A stretch of 64,000 nt of DNA from Acidimicrobiales bacterium. Its GTDB lineage: Bacteria > Actinomycetota > Acidimicrobiia > Acidimicrobiales > JAJPHD01. Positions within the stretch are counted from its first letter, which is position 1; each line of letters starts with the position of its first letter. The DNA lies in NCBI GenBank assembly GCA_039583695.1, contig JAVKSL010000001.1, positions 10,926-74,925 on the forward strand, given 5' to 3'. The notes under the pieces were generated by a model. The model saw only the letters and a list, made by a program, of their open reading frames with translations. It had not been told where the DNA came from and did no database searches. Of this stretch, positions 1 through 43,811 are shown in pieces. A program made the translations under genes and the position numbers.

Positions 1-1815
1 TTCTGGGGATTCATCGCCCTGGCATTCACCATCGTCGAGGTCTACGGCGACCTGTTCCAGGCCAACTTCGCCATCCCGGGCATCGGAACCGCCAAGGCGC
101 TCGGTTTCACCGAGGACCTCTTTGCCACCGCCATCCTGGGTGCCATCGTCGTGTTCGCCGTGATCCGCCTCCGCCACCCCCCGAGCAACCGGCAATCGCG
201 CTTCTACGGCTCCCACAACGCCGCCGCCTGGGCGGTGCTGGGGCTCATCGCAGCGGTGATCGCCACCCTGCTCGTCTACCGCGGCGCCCAGATCGACACC
301 GGCAACTTCCCCTACGGCGACACGTGGTGGACCTTCGCCTCCCGCCTGGTCGGCGACGCCCTGTCCCCGCTCGGGCGCCCCGCCAACGCCGACATCGCGA
401 CCGCCTTCGTCCTGGCCCAGATCGGCCTCCTGTGGGGGTTCTTCGTCGTCGTGGTGCGCTCCAAGCACCTCCACATCTTCGTGGCCGAGGCAAACGTGGC
501 TCTCTCCCGCCAGCCACGAGCGCTCGGCGCGCTCGCCACCACCCCCGATCTCGGCCTCTCCGGTGACGGCCCCGGCCCGGCCGAGGACGCCGTGCTGGGC
601 GCGGGGCGCATCGGCCAGCTCTCCTGGAAGCAGCTCCTCGACCTGTGCTCCTGCACAGAGTGCGGCCGCTGCCAGGACGCCTGCCCCGCCTGGGCGACGG
701 ACAAGCCGCTCTCCCCCAAGCTGTTGATCATGGACCTGCGCGACCACCTCCTTGCCAGCGCGCCCGCTCTCCTCGGCAAGGATTGCGCCACGGCCACAGA
801 CCTGGTCCCCTCCGTCGTCGCGCCCGACGTGCTGTGGTCCTGCACCACCTGCGGCGCCTGCGTCGAGGAGTGCCCGGTCGACATCGAGCACGTGGACACC
901 ATCGTCGACATCCGCCGCTACGAGGTCATGATGGAGTCCCGCTTCCCCGCAGAAGCCACCTCCATGCTCCGCAACATGGAAAACCGCGGAGACCCCTGGG
1001 GACTGGGGAAGGCTCACCGCCTCGACTGGACCGCCGGCCTCGACTTCGAGGTCCCCGTGGTCGGCGACACCCTCGACGACGACACGGAATACCTCCTCTG
1101 GGTGGGTTGCGCAGGGGCGCTGGACCAGCGCGCCCGCGCCGCCACCAGGGCGCTCGCCCGGGTCCTGCACTACGCGGGAGTGTCCTTCGCGGTGCTCGGC
1201 CCCCGTGAGTCCTGCACCGGCGACCCGGCGCGCCGCATGGGAAACGAGTACCTGTTCCAGACCCAGGCCACCGAGAACATCGCCGCCCTGAATGGCATCG
1301 GGGCACGCAAGGTCGTGGCCTCCTGCCCCCACTGCTTCAACACCATCGCCAACGAGTACCCAGCCCTGGGCGGCCGATTCGAGGTGGTCCACCACACCAC
1401 CCTGCTCGCCAGCCTGCTCGCCGGGGGCCGCCTCACCCCCACCGTGGCGCTCGACCAGACGGTCACTTACCACGACCCCTGCTACCTGGCCCGCCACAAC
1501 GACATCGTCGCCGCCCCCCGCTCGGTGCTCGACTCGATACCAGCACTCACCAGCGTCGAGATGCACCGCCACGCCAAGCGCACCTTCTGCTGCGGGGCCG
1601 GCGGCTCACGCATGTGGATGGAGGAGCGCACCGGCACCCGCATCAACGTCCGACGCACCGACGAGGCCCTCGCCACCGGCGCGAGCGCGATCGCCGTCGC
1701 CTGCCCCTATTGCATGATCATGCTCGACGACGGTCTCAAGGACCGCCAGAGCCAGGCAAAGGTGATGGACGTCTCCCAGCTGCTCGAAGCCTCGCTCCCG
1801 CCAAAAGATTCATAG
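1..1815 (+). CDS. Membrane-anchored iron-sulfur oxidoreductase, HdrD/GlcF-like (5' end lies outside the window)
   Basis: Frame 1 is open from nt 1 (FWGFIALAFTIVEV...) into tracked ORF 151..1815. Hydrophobic N-terminal segments. Two CxxCxxCxxxCP motifs (CTECGRCQDACP, CTTCGACVEECP). Cysteine-rich CCG-type motifs (CPHCFN, CCGAGG, CPYCMIM). Confidence 0.8.
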   Translation, partial: FWGFIALAFTIVEVYGDLFQANFAIPGIGTAKALGFTEDLFATAILGAIVVFAVIRLRHPPSNRQSRFYGSHNAAAWAVLGLIAAVIATLLVYRGAQIDTGNFPYGDTWWTFASRLVGDALSPLGRPANADIATAFVLAQIGLLWGFFVVVVRSKHLHIFVAEANVALSRQPRALGALATTPDLGLSGDGPGPAEDAVLGAGRIGQLSWKQLLDLCSCTECGRCQDACPAWATDKPLSPKLLIMDLRDHLLASAPALLGKDCATATDLVPSVVAPDVLWSCTTCGACVEECPVDIEHVDTIVDIRRYEVMMESRFPAEATSMLRNMENRGDPWGLGKAHRLDWTAGLDFEVPVVGDTLDDDTEYLLWVGCAGALDQRARAATRALARVLHYAGVSFAVLGPRESCTGDPARRMGNEYLFQTQATENIAALNGIGARKVVASCPHCFNTIANEYPALGGRFEVVHHTTLLASLLAGGRLTPTVALDQTVTYHDPCYLARHNDIVAAPRSVLDSIPALTSVEMHRHAKRTFCCGAGGSRMWMEERTGTRINVRRTDEALATGASAIAVACPYCMIMLDDGLKDRQSQAKVMDVSQLLEASLPPKDS

Positions 1816-20852: not shown

Positions 20853-22919
20853 TCATCCGAGGGCCACCACCGCCGCCAGGAGGGCAACCAGGGCCACCAG
20901 CATGTAGGCGATGTAGGCGTCGAGGCGTCCCGACTGCAGGCGCCTGGCCCAACGCGCTGCCCACAGGGCCACCACCCGGCCTGGTCTATATATGTAGGCC
21001 TCGATCGGCTCGACAGCCGTCGCTTGGTACTCGACGTGGGTGGGACCCGGGATCCCTTCGGCAGGTAGGCCACCCTTGACGACCACTACCTCGCGGCGTG
21101 ATCCGAGCACGTTCGCGAGGACATGGCGCAACACATTGGCGTAGGCGTACGCCCCGTAGCTGTCGGGGCCGGCCACCCCGGCAGTCGCCGAATGCCAGGC
21201 TGGCACCCGACGGACCCGCAGCACTCGAGTCCGGCTCAGCCCGACCGCAGCCAGGGCGACGGTCACCATCCCCACCGGTATCACCACGAAGAGCCAGGTG
21301 GGGGACAGGATGGAGAACCCACCGAACACAGGTTGGAGGACCCAGGGCGATTTGAGCGCCTGGTCGACCACCGCCGTGGGCACGATGGGGCCCAGGCCGG
21401 CAGCGATGTAGCGGATGCACCACGGAGCCGCCGCGGCCAACCAGAGGCAGCCCGAGCCCAAGAGGAGAAGGCCGGTCCGCCCCGATGCGCCGCGGTCACC
21501 CCGCCTGGGCAGGGCTCCGTTGGGCGGCGGCTGACCAAGCACGGCGAAAGCAAGCAGGCGGACGAACACCAGGGCAGCCACCCCGGCGCTGAGCGCCACC
21601 AAGGCCCCCCCACCTGCCATGGAGAGTCGCAAAGCCAAGCCGTGCACCCGAAACTGCTGCATCAGGGCTTCGAGGATGAACCACTCCGAGACGAAGCCGA
21701 TGGTCGGGGGCAGCCCAGCAAGCGTGAGAGCACCCGCCGCAAGGGTGGCCGAGCTCCAGGGGTGGGAGTGAGCTGCCCCTACTACCTCGGAAAAGCTCGA
21801 GCCTCCTCGGTCGGCCTCCACGTTGGCGACAGCCACGAACAGGCAGGACTTGGCGACTGCGTGAGCAACCGCCTGGAGGGTGGCGGCCAAGAGGCCCACG
21901 GCCAGCAATGACGGCTGACCCAGGGCCATGCCCACCATTGCCACCCCATAGCCAACCATGATTATGCCGCCGTTCTCCACGCTGGAGAAAGCGATCACTC
22001 GATTGAGGTCGGACTGCACCGCAGCAAAGACGACACCAAGGAGCGCCGTGAGACCGCCGAGGAGAAGCACCAAGGCAATCAGCCAGGTCGGCGGTGAACC
22101 CAGCACTCCGAGCATCCGCCATAGGCCGTAGAAGCCGACGTTCACCGCCAACCCGGCCATGGCGGCCCGCATGGGACCCGTAGCGGCGGGATAGCCGCGC
22201 GGCATCCACACCTGGAGGGGGACCAGGCCCACCTTGGCACCGAAACCTGCCACGATGAGCGCGTAACTTGCTGCGTGGAGGACGCCGTGCGGCACGGCGT
22301 GCCAGGATGCGATCGTGAAGCTACCGACATTGCCGGCGAGGAGGAGAAAGGCGAACGTCAGGCAGGCGCCACTGGACTTGGAGAAGCAGAGCGTGACCCA
22401 GCTGGCCCTGGCTTGGCCCACGCTCGATCGGCGTACGCCCGAGAGCACGTAGAAAGCAACCGTGAGCGACTCCCACGCAAAAAGGAAGGTGAAGGCGTCG
22501 CCGGCGACGATGATCACCGTGACCGCTCCCAGCAGCAGCATGTACCCGGCGCCGAGGCCGTGACCATGCACCCTGGGCCCTTGTGCCGTGGGCCCTTGTG
22601 CCGTGGGTCCTTGTCTGACCCACGTGACCATGCAGGCTGAGATCCCTATGCCCAGGCCAGAGGTGAGGGTGAGGAACAGCCCAGCCAGGCCGTCCAGGCG
22701 CAGGGACGTGCGACCGACACCGAGCAGGCTCCCCAGGTCGACGTTGACCGGGTGACCACCCACCATCTGGATCGCCGCGGCCAGCACGCAGGCACTGCCG
22801 AGGAGGCCGGCCAGGTAGGGGATGGGCCGGACCCGGCGGCTGCTGGCACCGAGGGTCAGGTCGATGGCGGCGCCGACGAACCAGACGACCAGGCCAGCCA
22901 GCAGCAGCTCTGCCCTCAC
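20853..22919 (-). CDS. NuoL/HyfB/MrpA-like proton-conducting antiporter subunit (last gene of the Ehr-like operon)
   Basis: A 688-aa polytopic protein of the NuoL/M/N family type. GTG 22919 overlaps the upstream TGA (GTGA). Confidence 0.85.
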   Translation of the reverse strand: MRAELLLAGLVVWFVGAAIDLTLGASSRRVRPIPYLAGLLGSACVLAAAIQMVGGHPVNVDLGSLLGVGRTSLRLDGLAGLFLTLTSGLGIGISACMVTWVRQGPTAQGPTAQGPRVHGHGLGAGYMLLLGAVTVIIVAGDAFTFLFAWESLTVAFYVLSGVRRSSVGQARASWVTLCFSKSSGACLTFAFLLLAGNVGSFTIASWHAVPHGVLHAASYALIVAGFGAKVGLVPLQVWMPRGYPAATGPMRAAMAGLAVNVGFYGLWRMLGVLGSPPTWLIALVLLLGGLTALLGVVFAAVQSDLNRVIAFSSVENGGIIMVGYGVAMVGMALGQPSLLAVGLLAATLQAVAHAVAKSCLFVAVANVEADRGGSSFSEVVGAAHSHPWSSATLAAGALTLAGLPPTIGFVSEWFILEALMQQFRVHGLALRLSMAGGGALVALSAGVAALVFVRLLAFAVLGQPPPNGALPRRGDRGASGRTGLLLLGSGCLWLAAAAPWCIRYIAAGLGPIVPTAVVDQALKSPWVLQPVFGGFSILSPTWLFVVIPVGMVTVALAAVGLSRTRVLRVRRVPAWHSATAGVAGPDSYGAYAYANVLRHVLANVLGSRREVVVVKGGLPAEGIPGPTHVEYQATAVEPIEAYIYRPGRVVALWAARWARRLQSGRLDAYIAYMLVALVALLAAVVALG
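22575..22619 (-). repeat. 15-bp in-frame tandem repeat in the NuoL-like gene
   Basis: GGGCCCTTGTGCCGT occurs twice, followed by a degenerate third copy. It encodes the GPTAQGPTAQGPRV loop. Confidence 0.8.
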
Positions 22920-23764
22920 AGGGCCCTGCCCCCCTCGGGGTTCCCCGACCTACCCCGCTCCGTGACCAGGCCGAGCGCCAAGAGGATCCCATGGAGCAGG
23001 CTGAACGGGCTCGGAGGCGAGCCCGGGACCCATACGTCTACAGGCAACAGGTCCCCGATGCCCCCGCTGGTGGCGTAGGTCCGGTGCACAAGACCACCAC
23101 TGGTGGCGTCGGTGCCAGCCGCGATCACGACCTTGGGGTCGGGCATGGACTCGTAGGTCCGCCGGAGGGGGCCCACCATTCCGGCGCTGCCCACACCAGT
23201 GGCCAGCAGGATGTCGGCGTGCCGGGGGCTGGCGGTGAAGAAGATCCCCAGACGATGGATGTCGTACACCGGGTTGCCCAGCGCCTTTACCTCCCACTCG
23301 TCGGATCCGTCGGAGCCGACGTCCACATGGCGGATGTGAACCGAGCGTCGCAGGCCGCGGGTACGCCTGGCCAGCTCGGCGCGTACCTGGGCGAGGGCTC
23401 CCTCGTCCTCCTGCACATCGGCGCCCAGGACCAGCCCCTGGCGGTGGATGCTGGCCACCTCGGGGGATGGGTCGAATCGGAACAGGTCTGGCCTTGCCTC
23501 CACGCAGCGGCCGCAGAGTATGCACCGCCCCCGGTCCAGGTGCAGCCGAGCCTTCGTCGTCCCGATAGCTCCTGTCGGGCAAAGGGCCGCGAGGTCCGCT
23601 GCCGAGCTCGTGCCGTCGCTCTCAACCTGGTCGGGCACCGCTGGCCCGCGGCGCTGCTCGACCAGACTGACCGCTCCCCGCCAGAGCTCTCCGTAGTCGT
23701 CGGGCCGAGCTGGATAACGGGTGGTGACCACCCCCTCGCTCAAGCCCCTCGTGATCCAGGGCAC
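22916..23764 (-). CDS. Fusion of a NuoI/HycF-like ferredoxin domain and a Cys-less NuoB/HycG-like domain
   Basis: The N-terminal half has LCPTGAI and CILCGRCVEARP. The C-terminal half (HIRHVDVGSDGSDEWE...SPRHADILLATG...AAGTDATSGG...VPGSPPSP) matches the NuoB/HycG fold but contains no cysteine at all. Confidence 0.8.
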   Translation of the reverse strand: MPWITRGLSEGVVTTRYPARPDDYGELWRGAVSLVEQRRGPAVPDQVESDGTSSAADLAALCPTGAIGTTKARLHLDRGRCILCGRCVEARPDLFRFDPSPEVASIHRQGLVLGADVQEDEGALAQVRAELARRTRGLRRSVHIRHVDVGSDGSDEWEVKALGNPVYDIHRLGIFFTASPRHADILLATGVGSAGMVGPLRRTYESMPDPKVVIAAGTDATSGGLVHRTYATSGGIGDLLPVDVWVPGSPPSPFSLLHGILLALGLVTERGRSGNPEGGRAL

Positions 23765-25258
23765 CTAGGTTGACGCTCCCGCGACCGAGAGACCAAAGCT
23801 CGCCTCGATGAAGACAAAGTCGGTGAAGATGTCGGTGCCAAAGGCGCTCGGAAAGAGCGCCAGATTGTGGAACGAGGCGGACCGGGGCTTTGCCCTTGCC
23901 ACCCGTCCGTCCTCGATCTCCACGAGGTACAGGATCTCGCCCTGCGGGGCCTCGGCCCAACCCAGGGCCAGGCCGTCGGCCTTTGGCACCCGGACCCGGA
24001 ACTGGGCGTTGTCCATGCCGGCCAGCAGCTCGAGCGCACCGCGAGCCAATCCCAGCGATGTCCCTATCTCTGCAAGGCGCACGTACTGGCGGGCAAGAGC
24101 GTCTCCCTCGTCGCGCGAAGCGGGCAGATCCAGGCTGAGCAGGTCGAGGTAGGCACCGTAGGGGCGGGTGCAGCGAGCGTCTTCGGTGGAGCCCGAGGCC
24201 CGCCCCACGGGACCCAGGGCACCATGGGCGGCAGCCAACGCGGGCTTGATCACACCAGTTCCCCGCAGCCGGTCGAGGAACGACGGTGTGGCCATCAGGA
24301 GATTGGCGTCTGCCCTGATGCCATGCTCCAGCTGAGCCAGCAGGCCGAGGGCCTGCGCAGGCGATATTCGAAGCGCGCCAGACACACCGCCGGGCACGAC
24401 GACCCCCCTGGCGAAGCGGTGACCGCAGAGCTGGGCTTGCAGGCGCAAGACCCGTTCTTTGTGCAAGGTCATCCGGGTATAGGCCACCGCCTGGCCGGCA
24501 CCCTCGGTGTGATGGACCACGGAGTCAAGATGGTTGGCCACACGCTCCAGCTCGGCGTGGAGGAGCCGCACAAGAGCCGCAGGCGCGGGCAGCACCACCT
24601 GTGCCAGCTGCTCCACCGCCTGGCAGAACGCCAGAGCATGAGCAACCGAGGCCACCCCCTCGACTCGCTCGCCGAGCAGGACCCCATCCTCGATGGAGAG
24701 ACCCTCGAAGCGGGCCTGGATGCCACGGTGCTTGTGATATACCCGGGTCCGTACGTGAGGGATGTCCTCTCCTGGCGTCTCGAGCAGGTACTCGATGGCT
24801 TCGTAGACGCCGGACCGCACCGGTCCGTAGGGGATCGTGAGCAACCCCTCACCCCTGGCGCGAACGGCCAACGCCCGATCGTCCAGCTCGACCTCCTCCC
24901 AGGTGACCGGAATCCTGATCTCGCCGGCTTCCCGCGGACGATGGAGCGGCAGGACCAGAGGGTCGAGCTCGGGATGGCCCAGCGGCTCGATGCCCACCAA
25001 GTCGTGAATCTCGCGCTCGTACCACGAGGCGGCCGGCACCTGGGCGGTCACGGCAGGGTAGGACCTCGCTCCTGGAGGAAGAGCTGCTTCGATCACCTCC
25101 ATCCGGTCCGGCCAGGCGAGCACGGCACGGAGGAATATCTGGTCTCCGATTGGGAAGGCGAACAGGCCAGCCAAACGCGCGGCCCCTGACCGCACGGCCT
25201 GGCCGATCACTCCAGCCAACGCGCTGCCCTCGAGCCTGGTCGTCGGGGCGAGGCTCAC
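23765..25258 (-). CDS. NuoC-NuoD / HycE-like large subunit lacking the NiFe-binding cysteines
   Basis: NuoC-like N-terminus (WYEREIHDLVGI) and NuoD/HycE-like body. At the L1 position, RxCGxCxxxH reads RVEGVASVAH. The C-terminal DPCxxC position reads EASFGL. GTG 25258 overlaps the upstream TGA. Confidence 0.85.
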   Translation of the reverse strand: MSLAPTTRLEGSALAGVIGQAVRSGAARLAGLFAFPIGDQIFLRAVLAWPDRMEVIEAALPPGARSYPAVTAQVPAASWYEREIHDLVGIEPLGHPELDPLVLPLHRPREAGEIRIPVTWEEVELDDRALAVRARGEGLLTIPYGPVRSGVYEAIEYLLETPGEDIPHVRTRVYHKHRGIQARFEGLSIEDGVLLGERVEGVASVAHALAFCQAVEQLAQVVLPAPAALVRLLHAELERVANHLDSVVHHTEGAGQAVAYTRMTLHKERVLRLQAQLCGHRFARGVVVPGGVSGALRISPAQALGLLAQLEHGIRADANLLMATPSFLDRLRGTGVIKPALAAAHGALGPVGRASGSTEDARCTRPYGAYLDLLSLDLPASRDEGDALARQYVRLAEIGTSLGLARGALELLAGMDNAQFRVRVPKADGLALGWAEAPQGEILYLVEIEDGRVARAKPRSASFHNLALFPSAFGTDIFTDFVFIEASFGLSVAGAST

Positions 25259-26793
25259 CGCGGAGGCCCCAGCTCCGCGGCAGCCCGCGCGAGGAGGTGG
25301 TCCAGCTGGGCGGGCGGATGGATGCCAAGCATGGCCAAGGCGATCAACCCCACCAGCATCGCGGCGACGATCCATCCACTGGTCTCACCCCTGATCGCCC
25401 CCTCGGGGGCAGGAGTGACCATGGCCTGGGTGCCATACCACGACAGACCGAAGAAGGCCATGGTCACTCCTGCCACCAGGATCGCAACGGCCACGTCTTG
25501 GGGATCGGACAGGCCACCGTACACGATCAGGAACTCGCTGCGAAATATCCCGAAGGGGGGGGCCGCAGACAGTCCCAAGATGGCCAGGACCAGCATCGGG
25601 CCGCTCCAAGGCAGGAGCCCGATGCCACCTCGGATCTGGGTCATGTCCTTGGTTCCCAACCTGCGCATGACGCTTCCCGCACCGAAGAAGGCGGTGGCCT
25701 TGGCGGCAGCGTGCGCCAGCACGTGGATCAGCACACCCACCACGGCGATGGTCACCCCGAAGCTCATTCCGATCATCAAGATCCCCATGTGCTCGATGCT
25801 GGAGTAGGCGAAAAGGCGTTTTAGATCGCGCTGGCTGAGCAGGTAAAGGGCAGCCAGCACCAGCGAGGCGATGCCGAACGCCAGCAGGACCTCGCGAGGG
25901 AAGGCAACCCCCACGGAGCGGATGGCGATCTGATAGTAGCGCAGTATCGCGTAGAACGCAATGGTGAGAAGTGATCCCGAAAGGAGCGCCGAGACGGGTG
26001 TGGGTGCCTCCGAATGCGCGTCCGGAAGCCAGGTGTGCACCGGGAACAGACCCATCTTGGTGCCGTAGCCAAGGACGGCGAGCACGAAGGCCAGCCGGAC
26101 GATGCCTGGGGGGAAGCGGGGGGCAGCTCGCAGCAACGGATCGAAGAACAGCTCGTAGCCCGAGCCAAGCACGGTGGAACCGGCATAGTAGATGACGATC
26201 GTCGCCACCAGGGCGATGCCCAGTCCCATGGACGCGATCAACACGTACTTCCACGAAGCCTCCGTGGCTCCCTCCGTGTTGTCGATCGCCACCAGCAGGG
26301 CCGATATGACTGTGGTGATCTCGATCGCCACCCACAACAGGGCCAGGCTGTTGACGATCGGGGCAACCGCCATGGACCAGGCAAAAAAGTTCAGGCCTGC
26401 CCAGAATCGCTGGCTGTACAGGAGAGTCCCTGGCTCAGCGGGTGTGGAGAATGTGATCAGGTTGAGCGGGCCGCCGAGCCTTCGAGAGCCGTCCAGCACC
26501 TCCCGCGGCTCTCGCTTCGGTCCGTGCAGGTACCCAACAGCGAATATGGAGGTGACGGCATAAAGGAAAGCGGTGGCTACCAGGAACACCACGGAGAGCG
26601 CGTCGGCCCGCAACCAGGAGTCGAGAGCAAGGACCGAATGAGACCCGACCCCGGGCACGAGGGCCAGGGCCAGCCCAAATGTTGCGACGCCAGCCGAGAC
26701 GGTCAGGCCTCCAGCGAGCGCTGGCGAGCTGCGCCACGCCACCAGGCCGACCACGACCGGCATCACCAGGATCACGACCAGGATCGCGCCCAC
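25255..26793 (-). CDS. NuoN/HyfF/MrpD-like antiporter subunit
   Basis: A 512-aa polytopic protein with NuoM/N-family blocks (WLPDAHSEAPTPVSALLSG...). Confidence 0.85.
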   Translation of the reverse strand: MGAILVVILVMPVVVGLVAWRSSPALAGGLTVSAGVATFGLALALVPGVGSHSVLALDSWLRADALSVVFLVATAFLYAVTSIFAVGYLHGPKREPREVLDGSRRLGGPLNLITFSTPAEPGTLLYSQRFWAGLNFFAWSMAVAPIVNSLALLWVAIEITTVISALLVAIDNTEGATEASWKYVLIASMGLGIALVATIVIYYAGSTVLGSGYELFFDPLLRAAPRFPPGIVRLAFVLAVLGYGTKMGLFPVHTWLPDAHSEAPTPVSALLSGSLLTIAFYAILRYYQIAIRSVGVAFPREVLLAFGIASLVLAALYLLSQRDLKRLFAYSSIEHMGILMIGMSFGVTIAVVGVLIHVLAHAAAKATAFFGAGSVMRRLGTKDMTQIRGGIGLLPWSGPMLVLAILGLSAAPPFGIFRSEFLIVYGGLSDPQDVAVAILVAGVTMAFFGLSWYGTQAMVTPAPEGAIRGETSGWIVAAMLVGLIALAMLGIHPPAQLDHLLARAAAELGPPR

Positions 26794-26796
26794 TAC

Positions 26797-27468
26797 CTAG
26801 CCCTTCAACCTATCGAGGACGTCTGTGGACAAGGTGTCGGCCTTCATGTGGTGGACCCGCATCAGCACCCCGAACACCACGACGGCCACCAGCAAGTCGA
26901 CCAGGAATGCCACCTCGACGATAAAGGGCAGCCCGGCAGCCACCACCAGGCTGGCGACGGACACCCCGTTCTCCAGGGAGAAGAAGCCCACGGCCTGGGA
27001 TACCACGTCCCCTCGCAGGATTATGACCACGAAGGAGACCAGCACCACCGCAACGGCCGTACCGAGGGCCGGAGTGGGCAACGTCGCCGAGTGGATGTCG
27101 AGGCCTTCCACCGCCAGGAAGCCGAAGACCGAGACGGAGATGCCTATGAAGATCATGGTGGCCACGTTCAGCCGGTGGCTGCCCGCCAAGTCCACCTTTG
27201 ACCCCCGCATGACCCGAAAGATGATCCCTGGGATCAGGATTACCTTGAGAACCAAGGTCAGTCCGGCCAGGATGAAGAGATCGGGTATCCCCCGCGCCGC
27301 CGCCACTGCTGAAGCGAGAGCGGCAACCACCAGAGATTGGAACGAGTAGAGCCGGACCTGCGAGCGCAGCATCGCGGAGCGAAGCATCGCGAACTCGGTC
27401 AACAGGATCAGGGCGGCCAAGCCTTCCGTGATCCCCGAGAACGTGCCGGGGTCTGGGGTCGGGTGCAT
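26797..27468 (-). CDS. HyfE/HycP-like small membrane subunit (NuoK-related)
   Basis: Start at ATG 27468 (MHPTPD...), sharing one nt with the upstream TGA. About 223 aa and hydrophobic, with its position matching hyfE/hycP. Confidence 0.75.
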   Translation of the reverse strand: MHPTPDPGTFSGITEGLAALILLTEFAMLRSAMLRSQVRLYSFQSLVVAALASAVAAARGIPDLFILAGLTLVLKVILIPGIIFRVMRGSKVDLAGSHRLNVATMIFIGISVSVFGFLAVEGLDIHSATLPTPALGTAVAVVLVSFVVIILRGDVVSQAVGFFSLENGVSVASLVVAAGLPFIVEVAFLVDLLVAVVVFGVLMRVHHMKADTLSTDVLDRLKG

Positions 27469-28421
27469 CAGGCGTACCCCACGTAGAGGGTCAGGATTGC
27501 CAGCACCGCCAAGAGGAAGGCGGCAGCCATGAACTCGGTGAGCTTGAACAGGCGCAGCTTCGAGAAGGTGTTGTCGCTCAGCGTCAGGACAGCCCCCACA
27601 CCGACTGCCTTTCCAAGCAGGATGGGTATTGCCAGGAGGACCGAGCCGGCGGCCAAGGAGCCAGCCAATCCCCACGGAGCTGCGAACACGTCCAGGAGGA
27701 TCACGTACAAGATGACCTGTTTCATGTTGGAGCCCCACTTGAGCAGGGCGAATGGGGGCCCGGACCACTCGAGCGTGCGTCCCTCGTCGATCATGCCGAG
27801 CTCGGTGGTGCTGGCGTGGGTCTCCACCGGGATGCGACCGGTGTCGGAGATGACCACCAAGAAGAAGGCGATGGCGGCCAGGAGGTGGGCCGGAAGGATG
27901 GCCTGGCTGAGCGAGGAGCGCGCCGCAGCCGCCTCGACGAAGGGGAGGTCGGTGCTGGTGACGATGCCGACCACGAAGGTGATGAACAGGATCGACGGCT
28001 CGATCAGCGCCCCGAAGGTCATGGCCCGGCTGCTGCCCAGCTGGGCGTAGGGGGCCCCGGTCTCGGCTGCCGCCAGGGATACGGAGAATCCCGCAAGGGC
28101 AAGTATGAAGGCCCCGCCCAAGATGTCCGCCGTGTAGGACAGCGGCAGCCCGAAGTTGGTCAGCTCAGGAATCAGCAGGGGGACTATCAGGTAGCAGGTG
28201 AAGGCCACCACCGGGGCCGCCAGGAAGACCCAGCTGGACTCCTCGGGCATGAGCGTCTCCTTCCTGAACAGCTTGGCCAGGTCGTAGTAGGGCTGGAGCA
28301 CGCGAGGCCCCCGCCTTCCCTGTAGCCGCGCCTCGATCTTGGCGATCACCCCACTCACCAACGGAGCGCCGAGCGCGACAGTGAGCACCTGCAGCACCTG
28401 AGCCAGCCACGCTGGTAACAC
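27468..28421 (-). CDS. NuoH/HycD-like membrane subunit (first gene of the Ehr-like operon)
   Basis: ...GAPLVSGVIAKIEARLQGRRGPRVLQPYYDLAKLFRKE is typical of HycD/NuoH. Start placed at GTG 28421, which follows GGACGGAGGA; the tracked ORF begins at TTG 28466. Confidence 0.85.
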   Translation of the reverse strand: MLPAWLAQVLQVLTVALGAPLVSGVIAKIEARLQGRRGPRVLQPYYDLAKLFRKETLMPEESSWVFLAAPVVAFTCYLIVPLLIPELTNFGLPLSYTADILGGAFILALAGFSVSLAAAETGAPYAQLGSSRAMTFGALIEPSILFITFVVGIVTSTDLPFVEAAAARSSLSQAILPAHLLAAIAFFLVVISDTGRIPVETHASTTELGMIDEGRTLEWSGPPFALLKWGSNMKQVILYVILLDVFAAPWGLAGSLAAGSVLLAIPILLGKAVGVGAVLTLSDNTFSKLRLFKLTEFMAAAFLLAVLAILTLYVGYA

Positions 28422-28656
28422 AAGAATCCTCCGTCCTCGTCGTGCCAAGTAGTCCTGCTTCAGCAAAGTTCCGCTGAGCAGAAGCCATCAGCTCCAAGGA
28501 GCAGTTCGGGTCGTGGCCCGCCGGAGCTTCATCCGACACGGGCATGGTAGCAGTCGGGCGCCCATCGCGCGTAGATCGGCGAACAGAGTACCTTTGACCC
28601 CACATGACACGCCCACGCATCTACCGGGAGCGACTCGCTACGCTCGGGGGGACGGG

Positions 28657-30120
28657 GTGAGCAGGCGCCAGGTGCGCCCCACATCGACGAGCAACTTCGG
28701 GGTGGGCGCTCGCGAGGCTCACGACGCCTCTGCTTTCTACGCTCGCTTCAGCCCCAAGGATGTAACCACCGACGAGGAGCTCGCCGAGCCGTTCGAGCTG
28801 GCCCAACCGCTCGTCTGCGGCGACTCGCGGGCTCTCGACCTGCCGGATAGATCCGTGGCCCTGGTGGTCACCTCACCCCCGTACTTCGCCGGCAAGGAGT
28901 ACGAGGAGGCACTGGGCCAAGGAGTTATCCCCGCCACCTACGTCGAGTACCTCACTCTACTGAGCCAGGTCTTCGCCGAGTGCCTGCGGGTCCTCGAGCC
29001 CGGAGGGCGGATCGCGGTCAATGTCGCCAACCTCGGCCGGCGACCGTACCGGTCGCTGTCCGCTGACGTAGTGCGCATCCTCGACGACGATCTGGGCATG
29101 CTGCTTCGCGGCGAGATAATCTGGAAGAAGGCCGACGGTGCAGCTGGGTCCTGTGCCTGGGGCTCGTACCGCTCGCCGGCCAATCCGGTCTTGCGCGACA
29201 TCAGCGAGCGGGTGATCGTCGCCTCCAAGGGGCGCTTTGACCGAGCCGTCGATATCGACGAGCGTCGTGCGCAGGGTCGCCCGCACCTGTCGTCGATCTC
29301 GGCCGACGAGTTCCTGGAGGCCACCCTCGACGTTTGGGACATCCGTCCGGAGTCCGCCAGACGGGTTGGGCACCCCGCTCCCTTCCCGGTCGAGCTGCCA
29401 CAACGACTCATCGAGCTTTACACCTTCAGAGACGACCTGATCCTCGACCCGTTCCTCGGGTCCGGCACGACAGCGGTCGCGGCGGTGCGCACCGGGCGGC
29501 GTTACGTGGGCTACGAGACCGATCCCGCCTACGTGAGCATCGCCCGGCAGCGAGTGGCCAAGGAGCAGATGCTGCTGGCGGCCAAGGTGGCACCGCAGGC
29601 GAGCTTGCCGATCTACCCCTCGCAGTCCCCCGCCACGTCTCGCTTGATTGAGCAGGGTAAGGCAGCGCAGGCGTTGGCCGTCGACATCGTGACCGAGGCC
29701 GGTTTCGAGATGCTCGAAGCCGATCACCGGATCCCAGGTGTCGGGATCCTCGTCAGTCTCGTCGCCCGCGACGCCGACTGCGCCGAATGGTATTTCGACG
29801 TGACCGGGGCCTTCACCTCGACCCGGAGCGGCCTTGTGCGCACCGACGCACTCTGGAAGTGCCTGGGACGAGCAAGCGTCCTCAAGGCTCGTGGCATCCA
29901 ACCGGTTGTGTTGCTCTCGTCCCACCTCCCACCGCAGCGCAGCACGGGAGACCAAGCGCTGCGTAGCGTCGGACCTAGCGGTATCCACGATGTCATGAGC
30001 ATGCTCAACGGCGCCGATCGTCAGCGCCTCGCGACCTACGCCGCTGGCGGCCATCGCAGCCGGCCCCTACCCGGCTTCTGGAGAGCGGCTGACCTCGGCC
30101 CAGCCCGCCCCCAGCCTTAG
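28657..30120 (+). CDS. Solitary beta-class (N4-C / N6-A) DNA methyltransferase with a ~170-aa C-terminal domain of unknown function
   Basis: Motif IV VVTSPPYF precedes motif I ILDPFLGSGTT, which is the beta-class order. Start placed at GTG 28657, which follows GGGGGGA; the tracked ORF begins at 28513. No endonuclease gene is adjacent. Confidence 0.85.
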   Translation: MSRRQVRPTSTSNFGVGAREAHDASAFYARFSPKDVTTDEELAEPFELAQPLVCGDSRALDLPDRSVALVVTSPPYFAGKEYEEALGQGVIPATYVEYLTLLSQVFAECLRVLEPGGRIAVNVANLGRRPYRSLSADVVRILDDDLGMLLRGEIIWKKADGAAGSCAWGSYRSPANPVLRDISERVIVASKGRFDRAVDIDERRAQGRPHLSSISADEFLEATLDVWDIRPESARRVGHPAPFPVELPQRLIELYTFRDDLILDPFLGSGTTAVAAVRTGRRYVGYETDPAYVSIARQRVAKEQMLLAAKVAPQASLPIYPSQSPATSRLIEQGKAAQALAVDIVTEAGFEMLEADHRIPGVGILVSLVARDADCAEWYFDVTGAFTSTRSGLVRTDALWKCLGRASVLKARGIQPVVLLSSHLPPQRSTGDQALRSVGPSGIHDVMSMLNGADRQRLATYAAGGHRSRPLPGFWRAADLGPARPQP

Positions 30121-30222
30121 GGCCTGGCAGAGAACAACCTGGGCGGCGGGCACAGCTATAGCCCTGATGAGGACCGCATTGAGCAGCGTCGCCGCCCAGG
30201 TTGTTCTCGTACAGGCCCTTAG
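30116..30222. repeat. 107-nt palindromic element, copy 2 (33-nt arms, 41-nt loop) between the convergent methyltransferase and hemD-regulator genes
   Basis: The left arm is CTTAGGGCCTGGCAGAGAACAACCTGGGCGGCG (30116-30148). The right arm is CGCCGCCCAGGTTGTTCTCGTACAGGCCCTTAG (30190-30222). 29/33 positions are complementary. Both flanking stop codons (TAG 30118-30120; TAA complement 30219-30221) lie in the arm tips. Confidence 0.8.
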
Positions 30223-31340
30223 CGAGGCTGCTGGTCGTCCAGGCAGAACCGGTAGCCCCGACCGGAGACGGCCTGCAACCCGCCACCTGCGGGACCAAGC
30301 CGGCGCCGGAGGCGGCTAACGGCTACCTCGAGGAGGTGGGGATCGGTGTTGGCGCATCCCCAGACCCCGGCGAGCAAGACCTCCCGGCCTACAACCGCGC
30401 CTGGCTTGCGGGTCAGCATGCCCAGGATCGTCCGCTCCTTCGGCGTCAGCTGCTCGACGGCACCGTCGAACTCTATCGCCCCGCCTTGGACGACCATCTC
30501 GTGGCCGGAGAGCCGGTAGGAGCGCCGGCTCTGGCTCAAGTGGTCGCCGAGAGCGCGCACGAGCAACCCCAGCCGGCCGAGCGGGGGTGTCAGCGGGTCC
30601 TCGATGCCCTCGGCCCGTGCCCCTCCGGCGCAGACCGGCCCCACGCAGGCGGCCAGCACGGAGCCACCATTGAATGCATCCCGGAGCTGTGCCGCCTCGT
30701 GCTGGGCCATCGCGAACAGATTGTGCACCGCCGGAGCGCTGGTGAAGGTGATCGCGTCGAGGCGACCAGCACACGCAGCCTTCACCAGGCGAAGGGCGGG
30801 CTCGGTGTCAGTGGGGAGACGCCACCGGTACACGGGCACGGACACGACCTCGGCTCCGGCATCGCTCAGGACCTTCACCAGCTCCGGGCTCTCCATGCCG
30901 TACTCCTGCACCGCCACCCGTCGATCCCGGAGTGGCTCAGCCAGGAGGATCTCGACCAGCGCGTCCATCCGCTCGGTCGGGGAGCTCTGCCACACGCCGA
31001 TACCCCCGATATGCAGGGCGGCGGCGGACTTGGGCCCGCGAGCAACGGTACGGGCCTGCCCGAGCGCAGCGACCAGCTGGGCACCGAGGCCCCACGTCGT
31101 CGCAGTGTCCAACCACGCCCGTACCCCGATTCCGGTCGTGGCGACCAGGTAGTCCGGGGGCGCCTCGATGATCGCCAGCGTCGCACGGCGCAGGTTCTCG
31201 TCCGAGGCCAGGTAAGAAGTGGTGATGCTGGCGCCGTGAACGATCGAGGCCCCCCGGCGTGACAGCAACTCGGCCTGCTCCTCCCAACGACGGTCGGCGG
31301 TGATCCCGATCACGAAGCCGTCGAGCGGACGCAGCGACAT
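30219..31340 (-). CDS. Uroporphyrinogen-III synthase (HemD) domain fused to an OmpR/PhoB-type winged-helix DNA-binding domain
   Basis: An N-terminal HemD-like two-lobe domain. C-terminal ...VEQLTPKERTILGMLTRKPGAVVGREVLLAGVWG...EVAVSRLRRRLG...VSGRGYRF Trans_reg_C signature. Confidence 0.85.
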   Translation of the reverse strand: MSLRPLDGFVIGITADRRWEEQAELLSRRGASIVHGASITTSYLASDENLRRATLAIIEAPPDYLVATTGIGVRAWLDTATTWGLGAQLVAALGQARTVARGPKSAAALHIGGIGVWQSSPTERMDALVEILLAEPLRDRRVAVQEYGMESPELVKVLSDAGAEVVSVPVYRWRLPTDTEPALRLVKAACAGRLDAITFTSAPAVHNLFAMAQHEAAQLRDAFNGGSVLAACVGPVCAGGARAEGIEDPLTPPLGRLGLLVRALGDHLSQSRRSYRLSGHEMVVQGGAIEFDGAVEQLTPKERTILGMLTRKPGAVVGREVLLAGVWGCANTDPHLLEVAVSRLRRRLGPAGGGLQAVSGRGYRFCLDDQQPR

Positions 31341-41042: not shown

Positions 41043-41318
41043 GTGCTCGTGGAGTTCGAGTTCGACACCGAGAAGAGCACGGCGAACCGGGCCAAGCACG
41101 GGACAGACTTCGTGGAGGCGCAGGCGCTGTGGGACGACCCGGATCGCGTCGAGGTGCCGGCTCGCACGGTGGGCGAGTCGAGGGCGCTCGTGATCGGCCG
41201 CATCGGCGCCCAGCACTGGTCGGCGGTGGTCACCTACCGGGATGGACGGGTCCGGATCATCTCGGTTCGGCGCTCACGGACAGAGGAGGTGAGGATTTTT
41301 GGAGAAGATGAGAGCTGA
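41043..41318 (+). CDS. brnT: BrnT-family (DUF497) type II toxin
   Basis: VEFEFDTEKSTANRAKHGTDFVEAQALWDDP...IISVRRSRTEE matches the BrnT pattern (FEWDxxKxxxNxxKHGxxFxEA). Confidence 0.8.
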   Translation: MLVEFEFDTEKSTANRAKHGTDFVEAQALWDDPDRVEVPARTVGESRALVIGRIGAQHWSAVVTYRDGRVRIISVRRSRTEEVRIFGEDES

Positions 41319-41544
41319 GGAGTTCGACGAGCGCTTCGATGCGGGCGAGGACATGACGTCGTTGCTCGACCTTCAAGCTGCCCGGCGTCCGGGACTCGAG
41401 CAGCGACGGGTGAACGTCGACTTTCCCTCTTGGATGATCGCGGCACTCGACCGAGAGGCCAAGCGTCTCGGCGTCACCCGCCAGTCGATCATCAAGGTGT
41501 GGATCGCCGATCGACTTGAGCGTCGACCCGAGAGCGCGGCATGA
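41299..41544 (+). CDS. brnA: BrnA-like / CopG ribbon-helix-helix antitoxin
   Basis: ...RRVNVDFPSWMIAALDREAKRLGVTRQSIIKVWIADRLE. It overlaps the brnT 3' end. Starts at TTG 41299 or ATG 41308. Confidence 0.75.
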   Translation: MEKMRAEEFDERFDAGEDMTSLLDLQAARRPGLEQRRVNVDFPSWMIAALDREAKRLGVTRQSIIKVWIADRLERRPESAA

Positions 41545-41556
41545 GCATCGCCGAAC

Positions 41557-41645
41557 CCCTCGTTGTCGGCAGGAGGTTGCGAGTTTCTCGGGACTTGGGC
41601 GGCCGTTGTCGCAAAATTGAGTAGGGCAGCGCCCGGGTGGCTGCA
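41557..41645. repeat. Intergenic repeat R2 (downstream of brnTA)
   Basis: CCCCTCGTTGTCGG...GCGAGTTTCTCGGGACTTGGG...ATTGAGTAGGGCAGCGCCCGGGTGGCTGCA. It shares the GCAGC-N9-GCTGC hairpin with R1. Confidence 0.6.
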
Positions 41646-41799
41646 TAGGGCAAGCCCGGTGACCAGCGACTTCATCAGGCGCCTAACCCGATGGTCGTGT
41701 GCTGGTCCTGAACCCCCGCTACTACGACCGCTTGTCAGGCGCGCACCTCGTGCAGGGGCGCAAGCGCCTGACCAGCGGTTTCTCGTTCCGGCGTGCGTC

Positions 41800-41826
41800 G
41801 GAGATGCGAGTTTCTCGGGGAAGTTT
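41800..41826. repeat. Partial repeat R3
   Basis: GGAGATGCGAGTTTCTCGGGGAAGTTT matches the R2 core GGAGGTTGCGAGTTTCTCGGGACTT. Confidence 0.5.
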
Positions 41827-42018
41827 CAAAGGGCGTCACCGGCTCGAATGAACAGGTTGCGGGCCTGCTGAACACCTACCACGCGTCCCAGCCATCCCTA
41901 ACCGGCGGGAGAAGATCATCTCCGAACGCCCGGTTCGGGAGCGCAGAGAATACCGACCGCGGACGTACCCCGATAGCCCCGCTCGCCCGAGACTGGGAAG
42001 TTGTTGTTACGCCAGCCC

Positions 42019-42357
42019 TTATGCACTGCGCTTGGTGGCCGGGGCGTCGGTGGCGGTGAGAGGGATGCGCTTGCCATCGACAACAGCATTGATCTCAAGG
42101 TGGCCGCCCAGCGCTTCGACGTAAGCGGCGAGCGTCGAGAGCAGCATGTCACCTTCGCGCTCGATCCGAGAGATCGTCGACTGGGGCCGCTGCATCGTGC
42201 GGGAGAGTTCCACCTGGGTGAGCTGACGGACGCGGCGCAATTCGCCCAGGGCGTCGCGTACCTGCTCGGCGACAACCTTGGCCCGCTCGCGCTCGACCCG
42301 CTCCCGGCGGGAAGCGTCCGCCATCACTTCGGCTTCTAGCTCTTCGAAGCGCTTCAT
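42019..42357 (-). CDS. XRE-family HTH antitoxin (HigA-like)
   Basis: MKRFEELEAEV...LRRVRQLTQVELSRTMQRPQSTISRIEREGDMLLSTLAAYVEALGG. ATG 42357 overlaps the toxin TGA. Confidence 0.8.
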   Translation of the reverse strand: MKRFEELEAEVMADASRRERVERERAKVVAEQVRDALGELRRVRQLTQVELSRTMQRPQSTISRIEREGDMLLSTLAAYVEALGGHLEINAVVDGKRIPLTATDAPATKRSA

Positions 42358-42713
42358 CGTTTGCTCCTCTTCATGGTCTCGACGTGCTGGGCGTACAGGC
42401 GCTCCGCTTCGGGAATGGCCCGGCGGTACCAGGACTGCCACTGCCCGGCCTTGCTGCCGCCGACGAGCAGGACCGCCCGACGTGACGGGTCGAAAACGAA
42501 CAGCACTCGCAGGTGCGCCCGACCGATTGAAGCCCGGAGCTCTTTCAAGTTGGCGATCCTGCTGGCCTGGATGGTGTCGACCGTGGGCCTCCCGAGCGCT
42601 GGACCGTGGTCACGTAGCATGGCGATCCGGGCCGTGAGCGCTTCCTGATGCTCGTCTGGAAGAGTCCGCCACCACCGCTCGAACTCATCGGTGACGAGAA
42701 CCTCCCACGGCAC
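42354..42713 (-). CDS. RelE/ParE-superfamily toxin (HigB / Gp49-like), encoded upstream of its antitoxin
   Basis: VTDEFERWWRTLPDEHQEALTARIAMLRDHGPALGRPTVDTIQASRIANLKELR...HLRVLFVFDPSRRAVLLVGGSKAG. Confidence 0.75.
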   Translation of the reverse strand: MPWEVLVTDEFERWWRTLPDEHQEALTARIAMLRDHGPALGRPTVDTIQASRIANLKELRASIGRAHLRVLFVFDPSRRAVLLVGGSKAGQWQSWYRRAIPEAERLYAQHVETMKRSKR

Positions 42714-43218: not shown

Positions 43219-43654
43219 GTGACGACGAACTGATCTACCGACGCACCTTCCTCGCGCCGCGCGAGCTCGTGTGGCGCTGCCTGACCGAGCCGGCAGAGCT
43301 CTCCGAGTATTGGGGTCCGCGTGGCGTGACCACCCCCTTGGAGGGGATAGTCGTCGAGCTGCGCGTCGGGGGGCGGTTCGAGACTCTGATGGTCGGCGAC
43401 CATGGCAGCGACCGGATGGCCGCCACCTTCACCGAGGTCGTCCCGCCTGAACGGTTGCCTGGGTCGACTCGGCCAGCGGGATGCACACCACCGGCACCTT
43501 GCGCGACCTCGGCGAAGGCGGCACCGAGGTAGTCATCTGCCAGCGGAGCGTGCCCGAGCCCCTGCGCTCGCCCGACGCTCGTGCCGGCTTCATCACCTCG
43601 CTCGACAAGCTCGACGACCACCTCGCCCGCATGATCCCGAAGGAGCCACCATGA
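43215..43654 (+). pseudogene. SRPBCC (Aha1-like) family protein, frameshifted near 43455
   Basis: VSDDELIYRRTFLAPRELVWRCLTEPAELSEYWGPRG...TEVVPPERL is in one frame. The conserved C-terminus WVDSASGMHTTGTLRDLGEGGTEVVICQRSVPE...GFITSLDKLDDHLARM is in another frame and ends at TGA 43652-43654. Confidence 0.6.
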
Positions 43655-43811
43655 CACCGTCTGTGTCAACCCCTAATCAAGAAATATTGCATTTGGTTGT
43701 TCCTCGTTTCGCTGGTTCAGCCGGCGCTGAGCTCTTGGCGGCAGGAGTCGGAGCATCAGCGCTGGCGGCCAGTGGGGGTGAAGAGCCAACCGCAGCAGGG
43801 GCAGGGGATCG

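Follow-up and report, generated by a model that had tools for sequence, protein, structure and literature searches.

On the minus strand of a 64-kb stretch of DNA from an Acidimicrobiales bacterium (contig JAVKSL010000001.1, GC ~68%; hereafter the window), six genes at 20853-28421 form an operon of the energy-converting hydrogenase related (Ehr) class, which lies behind a predicted fluoride riboswitch and encodes a complex-I-like assembly that has lost its NiFe site and, as judged from the cysteine ligands, all but at most one of its iron-sulfur clusters. With moderate confidence, we propose that its product is a fluoride-induced, redox-independent translocator of cations or protons, which would support homeostasis of pH and of the proton-motive force. 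The loss of the proximal cluster and of one NuoI-type cluster, and the fluoride-riboswitch context for an Ehr operon, are new here; the sequence-only reading of this DNA that preceded our analysis had missed both, and was in this respect incomplete, not wrong. From g1 to g6 the genes are NuoH/HycD-, HyfE-, HyfF-, NuoCD/HycE-, NuoI-NuoB-fusion- and HyfB/NuoL-like, as assigned from Pfam, NCBIfam and PDB searches, the last of which returned no match for g2. Successive junctions read TGATG; TAG, three nucleotides, GTG; GTGA; adjoining TAG/GTG; and GTGA, hence the translational coupling is real, and the earlier description of six coupled minus-strand genes in this order and at these positions is confirmed by the open reading frames (ORFs), domain matches and junctions.

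The predicted aptamer in the operon leader comprises P1 (TCGG/CCGG) with the loop ATGAAGCT, an inserted hairpin CGGGCCACGACCC, GAAC, P3 (GCTCC/GGAGC), TGATG and the pseudoknot strand GCTTC. All four P1 pairs and all five pseudoknot pairs are formed, and 11 of the 13 invariant columns are kept, the other two being a compensatory flip of one P1 pair; the P1, P3 and pseudoknot architecture and the conserved core nucleotides are present, and fluoride binding is predicted. The Rfam model RF01734 scores the leader at 25.2 bits (E 5.7e-5 in a 401-nucleotide search), below its gathering score of 34, and at that threshold the whole window yields no match. A covariance model built from 30 riboswitches of other loci, with the window left out (R2, whose E-values are roughly calibrated), was run unfiltered over the 64 kb and gave one significant match, at the aptamer (28468-28540, minus strand; 22.8 bits, E 1.4e-5), with the runner-up at E 0.035. 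A second model in which the pseudoknot is treated as structure (R1) did not detect the window element under default filters. The runner-up (43737-43792, minus strand, 12 bits) lies upstream of a Pfam-less ORF (43235-43669), and is probably a chance match.

Related operons carry the same element at the same place. R2 finds a same-strand match in 51/68 family loci, ending a median of 33 nucleotides before the first gene, and structure parsing recovers at least three of four P1 pairs together with at least four of five pseudoknot pairs in 63/69 family leaders, 44 of them perfect; in those remaining, the element is visible by eye, or a canonical riboswitch precedes an intervening same-strand gene. 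The family variant differs from the canonical aptamer in P1 (CCGG/CCGG vs GGCG/CGCC) and in an extra hairpin that follows it. Pairing is maintained by covariation, both in P1 (CCGG/CCGG, GGCG/CGCC, CCAG/CTGG, TCGG/CCGA) and in the pseudoknot (the family's GAGGC/GCCTC, the window's GAAGC/GCTTC, and also GAGAC/GTCTC and GGAGC/GCTCC). In P3, the window has CTCC/GGAG where its closest relative (L081) has CCCC/GGGG, again a compensatory substitution. RF01734 scores above threshold in five of the seven related loci scanned, including a Nocardia locus (L073, 46.2 bits) where the match immediately precedes the Ehr operon and shares its strand, and canonical above-threshold riboswitches occupy this position in Nocardia and Pseudonocardiaceae members of the family. 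These findings bear on the possibility that the window leader is a decayed relic, or senses some other ligand, and that the operon answers to other signals, such as the hypoxia or general stress reported for Mycobacterium tuberculosis Rv0081-87. The sub-threshold Rfam score, the P1 pair flipped at two otherwise invariant positions, the lack of any other fluoride gene in the window, and the Usp genes beside related operons, together with the literature on DosR and Rv0081, would each suit such an account. We nevertheless regard it as quite unlikely, given that at least 63/69 leaders keep the variant, its P1, P3 and pseudoknot pairs being preserved by compensatory substitutions, that the remaining invariant core nucleotides are all present, and that canonical versions stand at the same position in the Nocardia and Pseudonocardiaceae members.

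Downstream of the aptamer, minimum free energy and centroid folds both contain a long hairpin that engages the aptamer 3' strand, and in both the P3-region CUCCUU pairs with a purine-rich stretch just upstream of the Shine-Dalgarno sequence; P3 and the pseudoknot thus face competing alternative pairings. In relatives, the aptamer 3' tail CCTCTACGCA is complementary to TGCGTGGAGG, and the Shine-Dalgarno sequence lies within TGCGTGGAGG. The layout of the window leader resembles that of a translational ON switch, and we infer that switching would proceed accordingly: fluoride would stabilize the aptamer pseudoknot, the ribosome-binding site would be freed, and translation of the operon would be turned on. 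Promoter and terminator scans inside the operon gave results at chance level.

The large subunit encoded by g4 lacks the NiFe site. Its segment RVEGVASVAH stands column for column opposite RVCGICGFAH of HycE and RMCGICSFSH of MbhL in phmmer alignments, and EASFGLSVAG stands opposite the DPCxxC region. The sequence-only reading had held that both cysteines of each motif are replaced, and had proposed an alignment of this subunit; run against HycE, MbhL and Nqo4, the alignment bears out both statements, with E200 and A203 in the first motif, S491 and G494 in the second, and all four NiFe cysteines replaced in register. A set of 80 orthologues from GTDB genomes agrees without exception at R198, E200, G201 and G494, and 72 of them have A203 and 74 have S491. 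Because g4 stops three residues past G494, the last former ligand, as do all 80 orthologues, it is also without the C-terminal extension on which endopeptidase maturation acts. The four large-subunit cysteine ligands of group 4 [NiFe]-hydrogenases are absent from g4, as is the cleaved C-terminal extension of enzymes of the formate hydrogen lyase (FHL) type, and no gene for Hyp proteins is found in the 64 kb of this genome that were covered. The hallmarks of respiratory complex I (NDH-1), namely quinone-site His38 and Tyr87 (Nqo4 numbering) and cluster N2, with its tandem cysteines in NuoB, are missing too: Tyr87 is replaced by G201 and His38 by Tyr (Phe in most relatives), and the N2 ligands are missing. 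The fold itself is preserved in an AlphaFold2 monomer model (predicted local distance difference test, pLDDT, 77; predicted template modelling score 0.81), the best match being HycE (7z0s_E, TM-score 0.79), followed by NuoCD. Residues strictly conserved in this hydrophilic cap include E153, R198, E200, H207, D480 and E485, together with an Asp/Glu/Asp/Ser (D/E/D/S) set in the adjoining small subunit.

The observations on g4 also bear on whether the operon might encode a genuine [NiFe]-hydrogenase with unconventional ligands, or else a decaying, non-functional remnant. Public labels of the genes ('formate hydrogenlyase subunit 5', 'Ni,Fe-hydrogenase III large subunit') favour the former, as does the closest relative, whose operon has hypA and hypB at a distance of 3.5 kb. 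Against this, the ligand positions read E/A/S/G, the C-terminal extension and the proximal cluster are gone, and neither the window nor any of 80 other loci contains hypAB; against decay, the ratio of nonsynonymous to synonymous substitution rates (dN/dS) lies between 0.05 and 0.27, and conservation of the family reaches from Acidimicrobiia to Nocardia. The sequence already contradicts both variants, and we judge them highly improbable. Pfam scans of the ~55 flanking ORFs (very small ORFs being covered only partly) found no hyp, hycI, fdh or coo genes in the whole window, and tblastn with HypA and HypB found no match there, in keeping with the earlier statement that hyp, endopeptidase, formate dehydrogenase and carbon monoxide dehydrogenase genes do not flank the operon. 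The hyp genes of the closest relative, hypA and one that is hypB-like (ENVGNLVCP motif, N-terminus rich in His), lie with an AsnC regulator 3.5 kb upstream of its operon and divergent from it (L081:2189-3303, L082:1392-2506), and a fusion containing an E1 2-oxoacid dehydrogenase, with an enolase-superfamily gene, is directly upstream on the operon's strand. As hypA and hypB are missing from the window and from the 80 other loci, we take them to be lineage-specific neighbours, and set them aside as a sign of hydrogenase activity.

Loss of ligands extends to the electron relay. In the NuoB-like half of g5, alignment to HycG and MbhJ places D152, D155, D219 and S249 at the positions of the four proximal [4Fe-4S] cysteines, so that the four-cysteine proximal cluster typical of the small subunit of group 4 [NiFe]-hydrogenases is absent. 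D152 and D219 are invariant among 63 orthologues, while position 155 is Glu or Asp, and position 249 Ser, in 60 of them. A profile of the N-terminal half of g5 can be aligned across both ferredoxin motifs with TYKY/NuoI and HycF, and the NuoI-type amphipathic helix and TxxYP motif are kept. The fourth cysteine of motif 2 is Arg91; C62, C81, C84 and C87 presumably form the exact ligand set of one cluster, following the usual rule for 2x[4Fe-4S] ferredoxins, and all four ligands of the other NuoI-type cluster are lost. Thus g5 is predicted to hold at most one [4Fe-4S] cluster, and no relay to the large-subunit pocket. An AlphaFold2 monomer model (pLDDT 73.6) retains the fold of HycG. The cluster that remains is probably the one next to NuoB, in that a paralogous operon termed type B keeps this same cluster alongside its proximal cluster. 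Since the relay lacks its last cluster, electrons from a donor would be unable to reach the large-subunit pocket, and the combined loss of NiFe and relay ligands therefore makes a redox-independent, Mrp-like translocator the most likely product.

Other Ehr groups place this loss in sequence. The SSSD group (L084, Desulfotomaculales) and the SNSG group (L085) have the NuoI-NuoB fusion with all three clusters; type B (L013, L047, L087) combines a cysteine-less large subunit with four proximal cysteines and one NuoI-type cluster, making two clusters; SDSG (L088) keeps three of four proximal cysteines; and AMTG (L086; large subunit P0263, 42% identical) shows the same D/E/D/S replacement as the window, with loss of the proximal cluster. 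The relay therefore erodes stepwise within one six-gene architecture, of which the window's family is the most reduced state. Canonical fluoride riboswitches precede the operons of four of these sub-groups (type B, AMTG, SDSG and SSSD), L085 being the exception. As the relay has been lost repeatedly while architecture, regulation and constraint were kept, it is likely dispensable for the core function. In L002, L013, L031, L047 and L055 a type B operon adjoins the family operon, and L087 has a type B operon as well; its large subunit, 35-37% identical, reads ERMEGLSAVAN ... IIEASFWLTVAG, and it has its own fluoride riboswitch.

These comparisons also inform an alternative in which the complex is a redox-driven pump of the Mbx or MBS type, whose single [4Fe-4S] cluster would be reduced by a soluble donor such as ferredoxin, and whose pumping would rebuild the proton-motive force under fluoride stress. 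The substrate would in that case bind near the cluster, or be reached through a metal without cysteine ligands at the D/E/D/S site. Invariance of one complete cluster ligand set, strict conservation of the carboxylates at the former proximal site, and the three-cluster wire in sister Ehr groups, one of which (L084) lies behind the same riboswitch, are all compatible with such a pump, and a primary pump would solve the problem of the energy source. However, a partner oxidoreductase is not conserved beside the operon in 80 loci, redox metals are not typically held by an all-oxygen site such as D/E/D/S, g4 is without the quinone-site residues of Nqo4 (His38 and Tyr87), and, from general knowledge of complex-I geometry, a single cluster could not bridge to the large-subunit pocket without the proximal one. 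We consider a redox pump possible, if rather unlikely.

The membrane subunits retain the hallmark ion-translocation residues of the complex-I/Mrp superfamily. The motif RLQGRRGPRxLQPYYD and an acidic loop between transmembrane helices (TM) 5 and 6 are conserved in g1, as are intramembrane Glu and Asp residues (ENG and E..DLL motifs) in g2. Conserved residues of g3 are Glu in TM5 and TM12, Lys in TM7 and His/Lys in TM11, with Thr or Ala at the position of NuoM K265, and g6 conserves the TM5 Glu (WE), the TM7 Lys, HAxAK and SEW. The presence of a hydrophilic arm, and of a gene set other than MrpA/D-like subunits with MrpB, C, E, F and G, sets the complex apart from Mrp-type antiporters; it is not an Mrp member, yet it may work in a similar way. 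Two local features of these subunits are of separate interest: an insertion of ~25 residues in g3 (residues ~96-120, PREVLDGSRRLGGPLNLITFSTPAE), common to the closest relative and absent from most family members, and an in-frame 15-bp tandem repeat of 2.7 copies at 22574-22614, which encodes GPTAQGPTAQGP in a loop of g6 and is absent from the closest relative (L083).

Constraint on the operon is evident throughout its family, which is carried by at least 403 species-level GTDB genomes. Among the matches listed, carriers are mostly metagenome-assembled genomes of Acidimicrobiales and Acidimicrobiaceae, and also include Pseudonocardiaceae, Streptosporangiaceae and the cultured Nocardia sp. NPDC051570. 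Gene order (H-E-F-CD-IB-L) is identical in 58/58 complete related loci, and comparison with the closest relative, a set of JGI metagenome contigs (L081-L083) whose large subunit is 87% identical, gives dN/dS values of 0.05, 0.15, 0.14, 0.16, 0.27 and 0.14 for g1 to g6; all six genes are under purifying selection, and order and constraint together speak against chance assembly. An exhaustive HMMER search over 1.84 billion cluster representatives gave 377 matches at E <= 1e-30, and only 19 of the best full-length representatives have all four NiFe cysteines, the rest being cysteine-less with patterns such as EASG (the window's family), SxSG, AxTG and SxxE, among others. On these alignments, g4 belongs to a large radiation of cysteine-less relatives of group 4 hydrogenases. 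Its homology to their large subunits without the NiFe-binding cysteines, in an operon with NuoH-like, HyfE-like, antiporter-like, large and small subunits, is what defines Ehr, and the earlier assignment as Ehr-type and probably not a hydrogenase is supported by the ligand replacements, the subunit set and the cysteine-less relatives alike. Clustering of the flanks of 80 loci found no conserved redox-partner gene next to the operon, on which ground a complex of formate dehydrogenase with Ehr, as proposed for Margulisbacteria, was rejected for this family.

The flanks of the family operons show no block conservation, but the genes that do recur there are familiar members of fluoride-riboswitch regulons. 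Across the 80 loci these comprise Usp (19), DUF190 (16), a dynamin-like GTPase (14), a MutS_V-type ATPase (12), CrcB (10), a histidine phosphatase (8) and enolase (5), while CLC, pyrophosphatase and Usp genes lie beside other Ehr groups. Further riboswitches in related loci (L066:11413-11474, L013:16499-16563, L087:18762-18822, L030:4963-5026, L058:13967-14026, L065:5569-5630 and L053:3009-3069) lie directly upstream of dynamin-like GTPase, MutS_V-type ATPase, histidine-phosphatase and crcB/DUF190 genes, and another (L001:13354-13419) lies ~400 nucleotides upstream of a Usp gene; with the Ehr operon, such riboswitch-controlled genes make up what may be called 'fluoride islands'.

Weinberg and colleagues (2010) and, reportedly, Baker and colleagues (2012) list 'formate hydrogen lyase' among the targets of crcB-motif riboswitches, and public pipelines give genes of the present kind similar labels ('formate hydrogenlyase subunit 5', 'hydrogenase 4', 'Ni,Fe-hydrogenase III large subunit'). 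This common class of fluoride-riboswitch-associated genes has been listed since 2010 (PMC2864571, PMC11139923), and a 2024 review took the target to reflect anaerobic fermentation (PMC11139923). In every riboswitch-linked operon that we examined, the 'hydrogenase' is without NiFe ligands and formate dehydrogenase is not nearby; at least in the loci studied here, the 'FHL' targets are cysteine-less Ehr operons. Our literature search, incomplete in coverage, found no paper that links 'FHL' riboswitch targets to Ehr, or that describes a fluoride-riboswitch leader of an Ehr operon. Sources up to 2023 treat Ehr as a class of unknown function (PMC10284858, PMC6349859, PMC7894505). Na+/H+ antiporters, by comparison, are the second most common fluoride-riboswitch-linked class, and have been tied to pH homeostasis under fluoride (PMC11139923).

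Together, these findings suggest a model in which the induced complex would move cations or protons in the manner of Mrp, without redox drive, and so counter the cytoplasmic acidification and the drain on the proton-motive force that result from influx of hydrogen fluoride and efflux of F-. For the hydrophilic cap, roles as a lid, a regulator or a ligand site would be open, and for the remaining cluster a structural or sensing role. An alternative use of the cap is conceivable in a non-redox machine, driven by the proton-motive force, that handles fluoride or metal-fluoride: its carboxylate pockets would bind Mg2+ or Ca2+, with or without F-, while extrusion, sequestration or sensing would draw on the proton gradient through the antiporter-like subunits. 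Analogues are DAB and Cup, in which complex-I-type subunits energize CO2 hydration; acidic residues replace ligands at both former metal sites (E200; D152, E/D155 and D219) in more than 60 sequences and in the AMTG group; regulation is predicted to be fluoride-specific; and fluoride is recognized through Mg2+ in the riboswitch and in sites of the enolase and pyrophosphatase type. On the other side, metal or fluoride binding is conjectural, CrcB exporters already lie near the operon in many carrier loci, and a cavity resembling the quinone tunnel would, from general knowledge, open to the membrane and cytoplasm and not to the outside, for which reasons we think such a machine unlikely. In a bolder form, Ehr would be the long-unexplained 'formate hydrogen lyase' arm of the bacterial fluoride response, and this redox-dead sub-family a new kind of complex-I-derived machine, its carboxylate-lined former NiFe and FeS pockets binding or sensing Mg2+- or Ca2+-fluoride, such that proton flow is coupled directly to detoxification and not to generic pH homeostasis; we regard this as a long shot.

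Several points weigh against the translocator that we prefer. The window aptamer falls below the RF01734 gathering threshold (25.2 vs 34 bits), departs from two otherwise invariant positions through its flipped P1 pair, and carries a 12-nucleotide insertion, and no fluoride exporter or other fluoride gene is found in the 64-kb window. The proposal that the complex is a translocator draws on absent cofactor ligands and on context. A secondary antiporter is not obviously in need of a large, conserved hydrophilic cap, and strict conservation of the cap suggests a specific role outside the translocator model. Lastly, the two Ehr groups with three clusters, of which L084 lies behind the same riboswitch, may still be redox-active.

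Ehr complexes are widespread, and sit at the evolutionary junction of membrane hydrogenases and complex I; the riboswitch leader gives this class its first physiological context, with fluoride as a defined putative inducer. Because the riboswitch links them, the question of Ehr function and that of the 'FHL' riboswitch targets both become testable, through an inducer, a cultured carrier (Nocardia sp. NPDC051570) and phenotypes that are open to measurement, namely NaF tolerance at low pH, cytoplasmic pH and membrane potential. More broadly, stepwise loss of the NiFe site and FeS clusters under purifying selection constitutes a natural experiment on whether the coupling machinery of complex I still functions, or can take on another use, once redox chemistry is gone. 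At a practical level, labels such as 'FHL' and 'hydrogenase' can be in error, both in metagenomic surveys of H2 metabolism and in lists of fluoride regulons.

Coordinates of the operon, its leader and the former and retained ligand sites are collected in Table 1.

Table 1. Positions in the window of the predicted leader elements, the six genes and the cofactor-ligand sites of the Ehr operon.
Feature	Position	Strand	Basis
Fluoride-riboswitch aptamer (predicted), variant class, operon 5' leader	28468-28540	-	RF01734 and model R2
Expression platform (predicted): hairpin competing with aptamer 3' strand, then Shine-Dalgarno GGAGGA 5 nucleotides before GTG (28421)	28422-28467	-	Sequence
g1, NuoH/HycD-like membrane subunit, 317 residues, GTG start	27468-28421	-	PF00146, E 8.5e-35; HycD 7z0s_D, full length, E 2e-39
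g2, HyfE-like membrane subunit, 223 residues	26797-27468	-	NCBIfam NF008556 'hydrogenase 4 membrane subunit', 88.6 bits, under cut-off
g3, antiporter-like HyfF/NuoM/N-like subunit, 512 residues	25255-26793	-	PF00361; hydrogenase-4 subunit F models
g4, NuoC+NuoD/HycE-like large subunit without NiFe site, 497 residues	23765-25258	-	PF00329 and PF00346; best PDB match HycE 7z0s_E, E 4.8e-36
g4, former L1 motif RVEGVASVAH (Cys1 to E200, Cys2 to A203)	24638-24667	-	Alignments to HycE and MbhL
g4, former L2 motif EASFGLSVAG (Cys3 to S491, Cys4 to G494)	23777-23806	-	Alignment to DPCxxC region
g5, one-cluster NuoI/HycF-like ferredoxin domain fused to cluster-less NuoB/HycG-like domain, 282 residues	22916-23764	-	Fer4-type and PF01058
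g5, retained [4Fe-4S] ligand set: C62-P63 (motif 1, last Cys) and C81xxC84xxC87 (motif 2)	23489-23581	-	Invariant in 63/63 and 29/29
g5, former proximal ligands 1 and 2, DVGSDGSDEWE (Cys to D152, Cys to D155)	23291-23323	-	Versus HycG vdCggCngCeie, MbhJ gsCngCdie
g5, former proximal ligand 3 (Cys to D219), AGTDATSGG versus ...C.nsGG	23108-23110	-	63/63 orthologues
g5, former proximal ligand 4 (Cys to S249), VPGSPP versus VPGCPP	23018-23020	-	60/63 orthologues
g6, antiporter-like HyfB/NuoL-like subunit, 688 residues	20853-22919	-	NF005086, 360 bits, full length

Of the genes around the operon, an N6/N4 DNA-methylase ORF (28513-30120, plus strand) is divergent from it across a very short shared intergenic region; since the longest frame overlaps the riboswitch aptamer, the real start of the methylase is probably further downstream. 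Beyond it lies an ORF (30219-31340, minus strand) in which, unusually, a uroporphyrinogen-III synthase (HemD) domain is joined to a winged-helix DNA-binding domain of the OmpR type. Toxin-antitoxin-type genes (a BrnT toxin; a Gp49/HigB-like gene with a helix-turn-helix partner) occur at 41043-42713, between a glyoxalase cluster and an ArsR-type regulator. Upstream of a dnaK-grpE-dnaJ-hspR cluster, and by its position unrelated to the operon, is a gene (151-1815, plus strand) for a CCG-domain / 4Fe-4S dicluster protein of the GlpC/HdrD kind.

Among known systems, the window operon is closest in kind to other members of the Ehr class, which was reportedly defined by Coppi in 2005 and by Marreiros and colleagues in 2013. 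EhrA-S of Geobacter sulfurreducens (GSU0739-45) has the same NuoL-, NuoH-, HyfE- and HyfF-like, large and small subunits, and its large subunit is likewise without the NiFe cysteines (PMC7894505). Relative to Geobacter Ehr, the window operon has further lost the proximal cluster and one NuoI-type cluster, and its NuoI and NuoB are fused. The Rv0082-Rv0087 set of M. tuberculosis (the hycD/P/Q/E locus) is also a six-gene actinobacterial set with the same subunit types, in an order (B, L, H, E, F, CD) that is rotated with respect to the window; a rotated order, L-H-E-F-CD-IB, occurs in another Ehr group too (L085). The earlier remark that the window operon resembles a circular permutation of the mycobacterial genes fits the published gene list (PMC6901956), on which the comparison is based. 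The mycobacterial locus has been called EHR and not a functional hydrogenase (PMC6728331), and is stress-regulated via Rv0081, DosR and MprA (PMC6728331, PMC6901956).

More distant relatives delimit what has been lost and what is kept. E. coli formate hydrogenlyase and hydrogenase-4 (Hyc/Hyf, 7Z0S) provide the best matches of g1, g4 and g5 (HycD, HycE and HycG), and the HyfB-, HyfE- and HyfF-type subunits are common to both; but the window operon is without the NiFe site, proximal cluster and pair of HycF clusters of E. coli FHL, and without its HycB, its FdhF, its maturation by Hyp proteins and its cleavage by HycI. Pyrococcus Mbx and MBS, and complex I, share its fold, a NuoD-like subunit without a complete NiFe site, and coupled antiporter-like subunits. 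Whereas those complexes keep a three-cluster relay that includes the N2 or proximal cluster, the relay of the window operon is broken, and where complex I has the quinone ligands H38 and Y87, g4 has Tyr (Phe in most relatives) and G201. Mrp antiporters differ in being without a NuoH/NuoD/NuoB/NuoI-like module, and MrpB, C, E, F and G were not found in the window operon; the likeness consists in two PF00361 subunits with conserved Lys/Glu relay residues, for which redox drive is not needed. With the Na+/H+ antiporters that are linked to fluoride riboswitches, the operon shares its physiological context.

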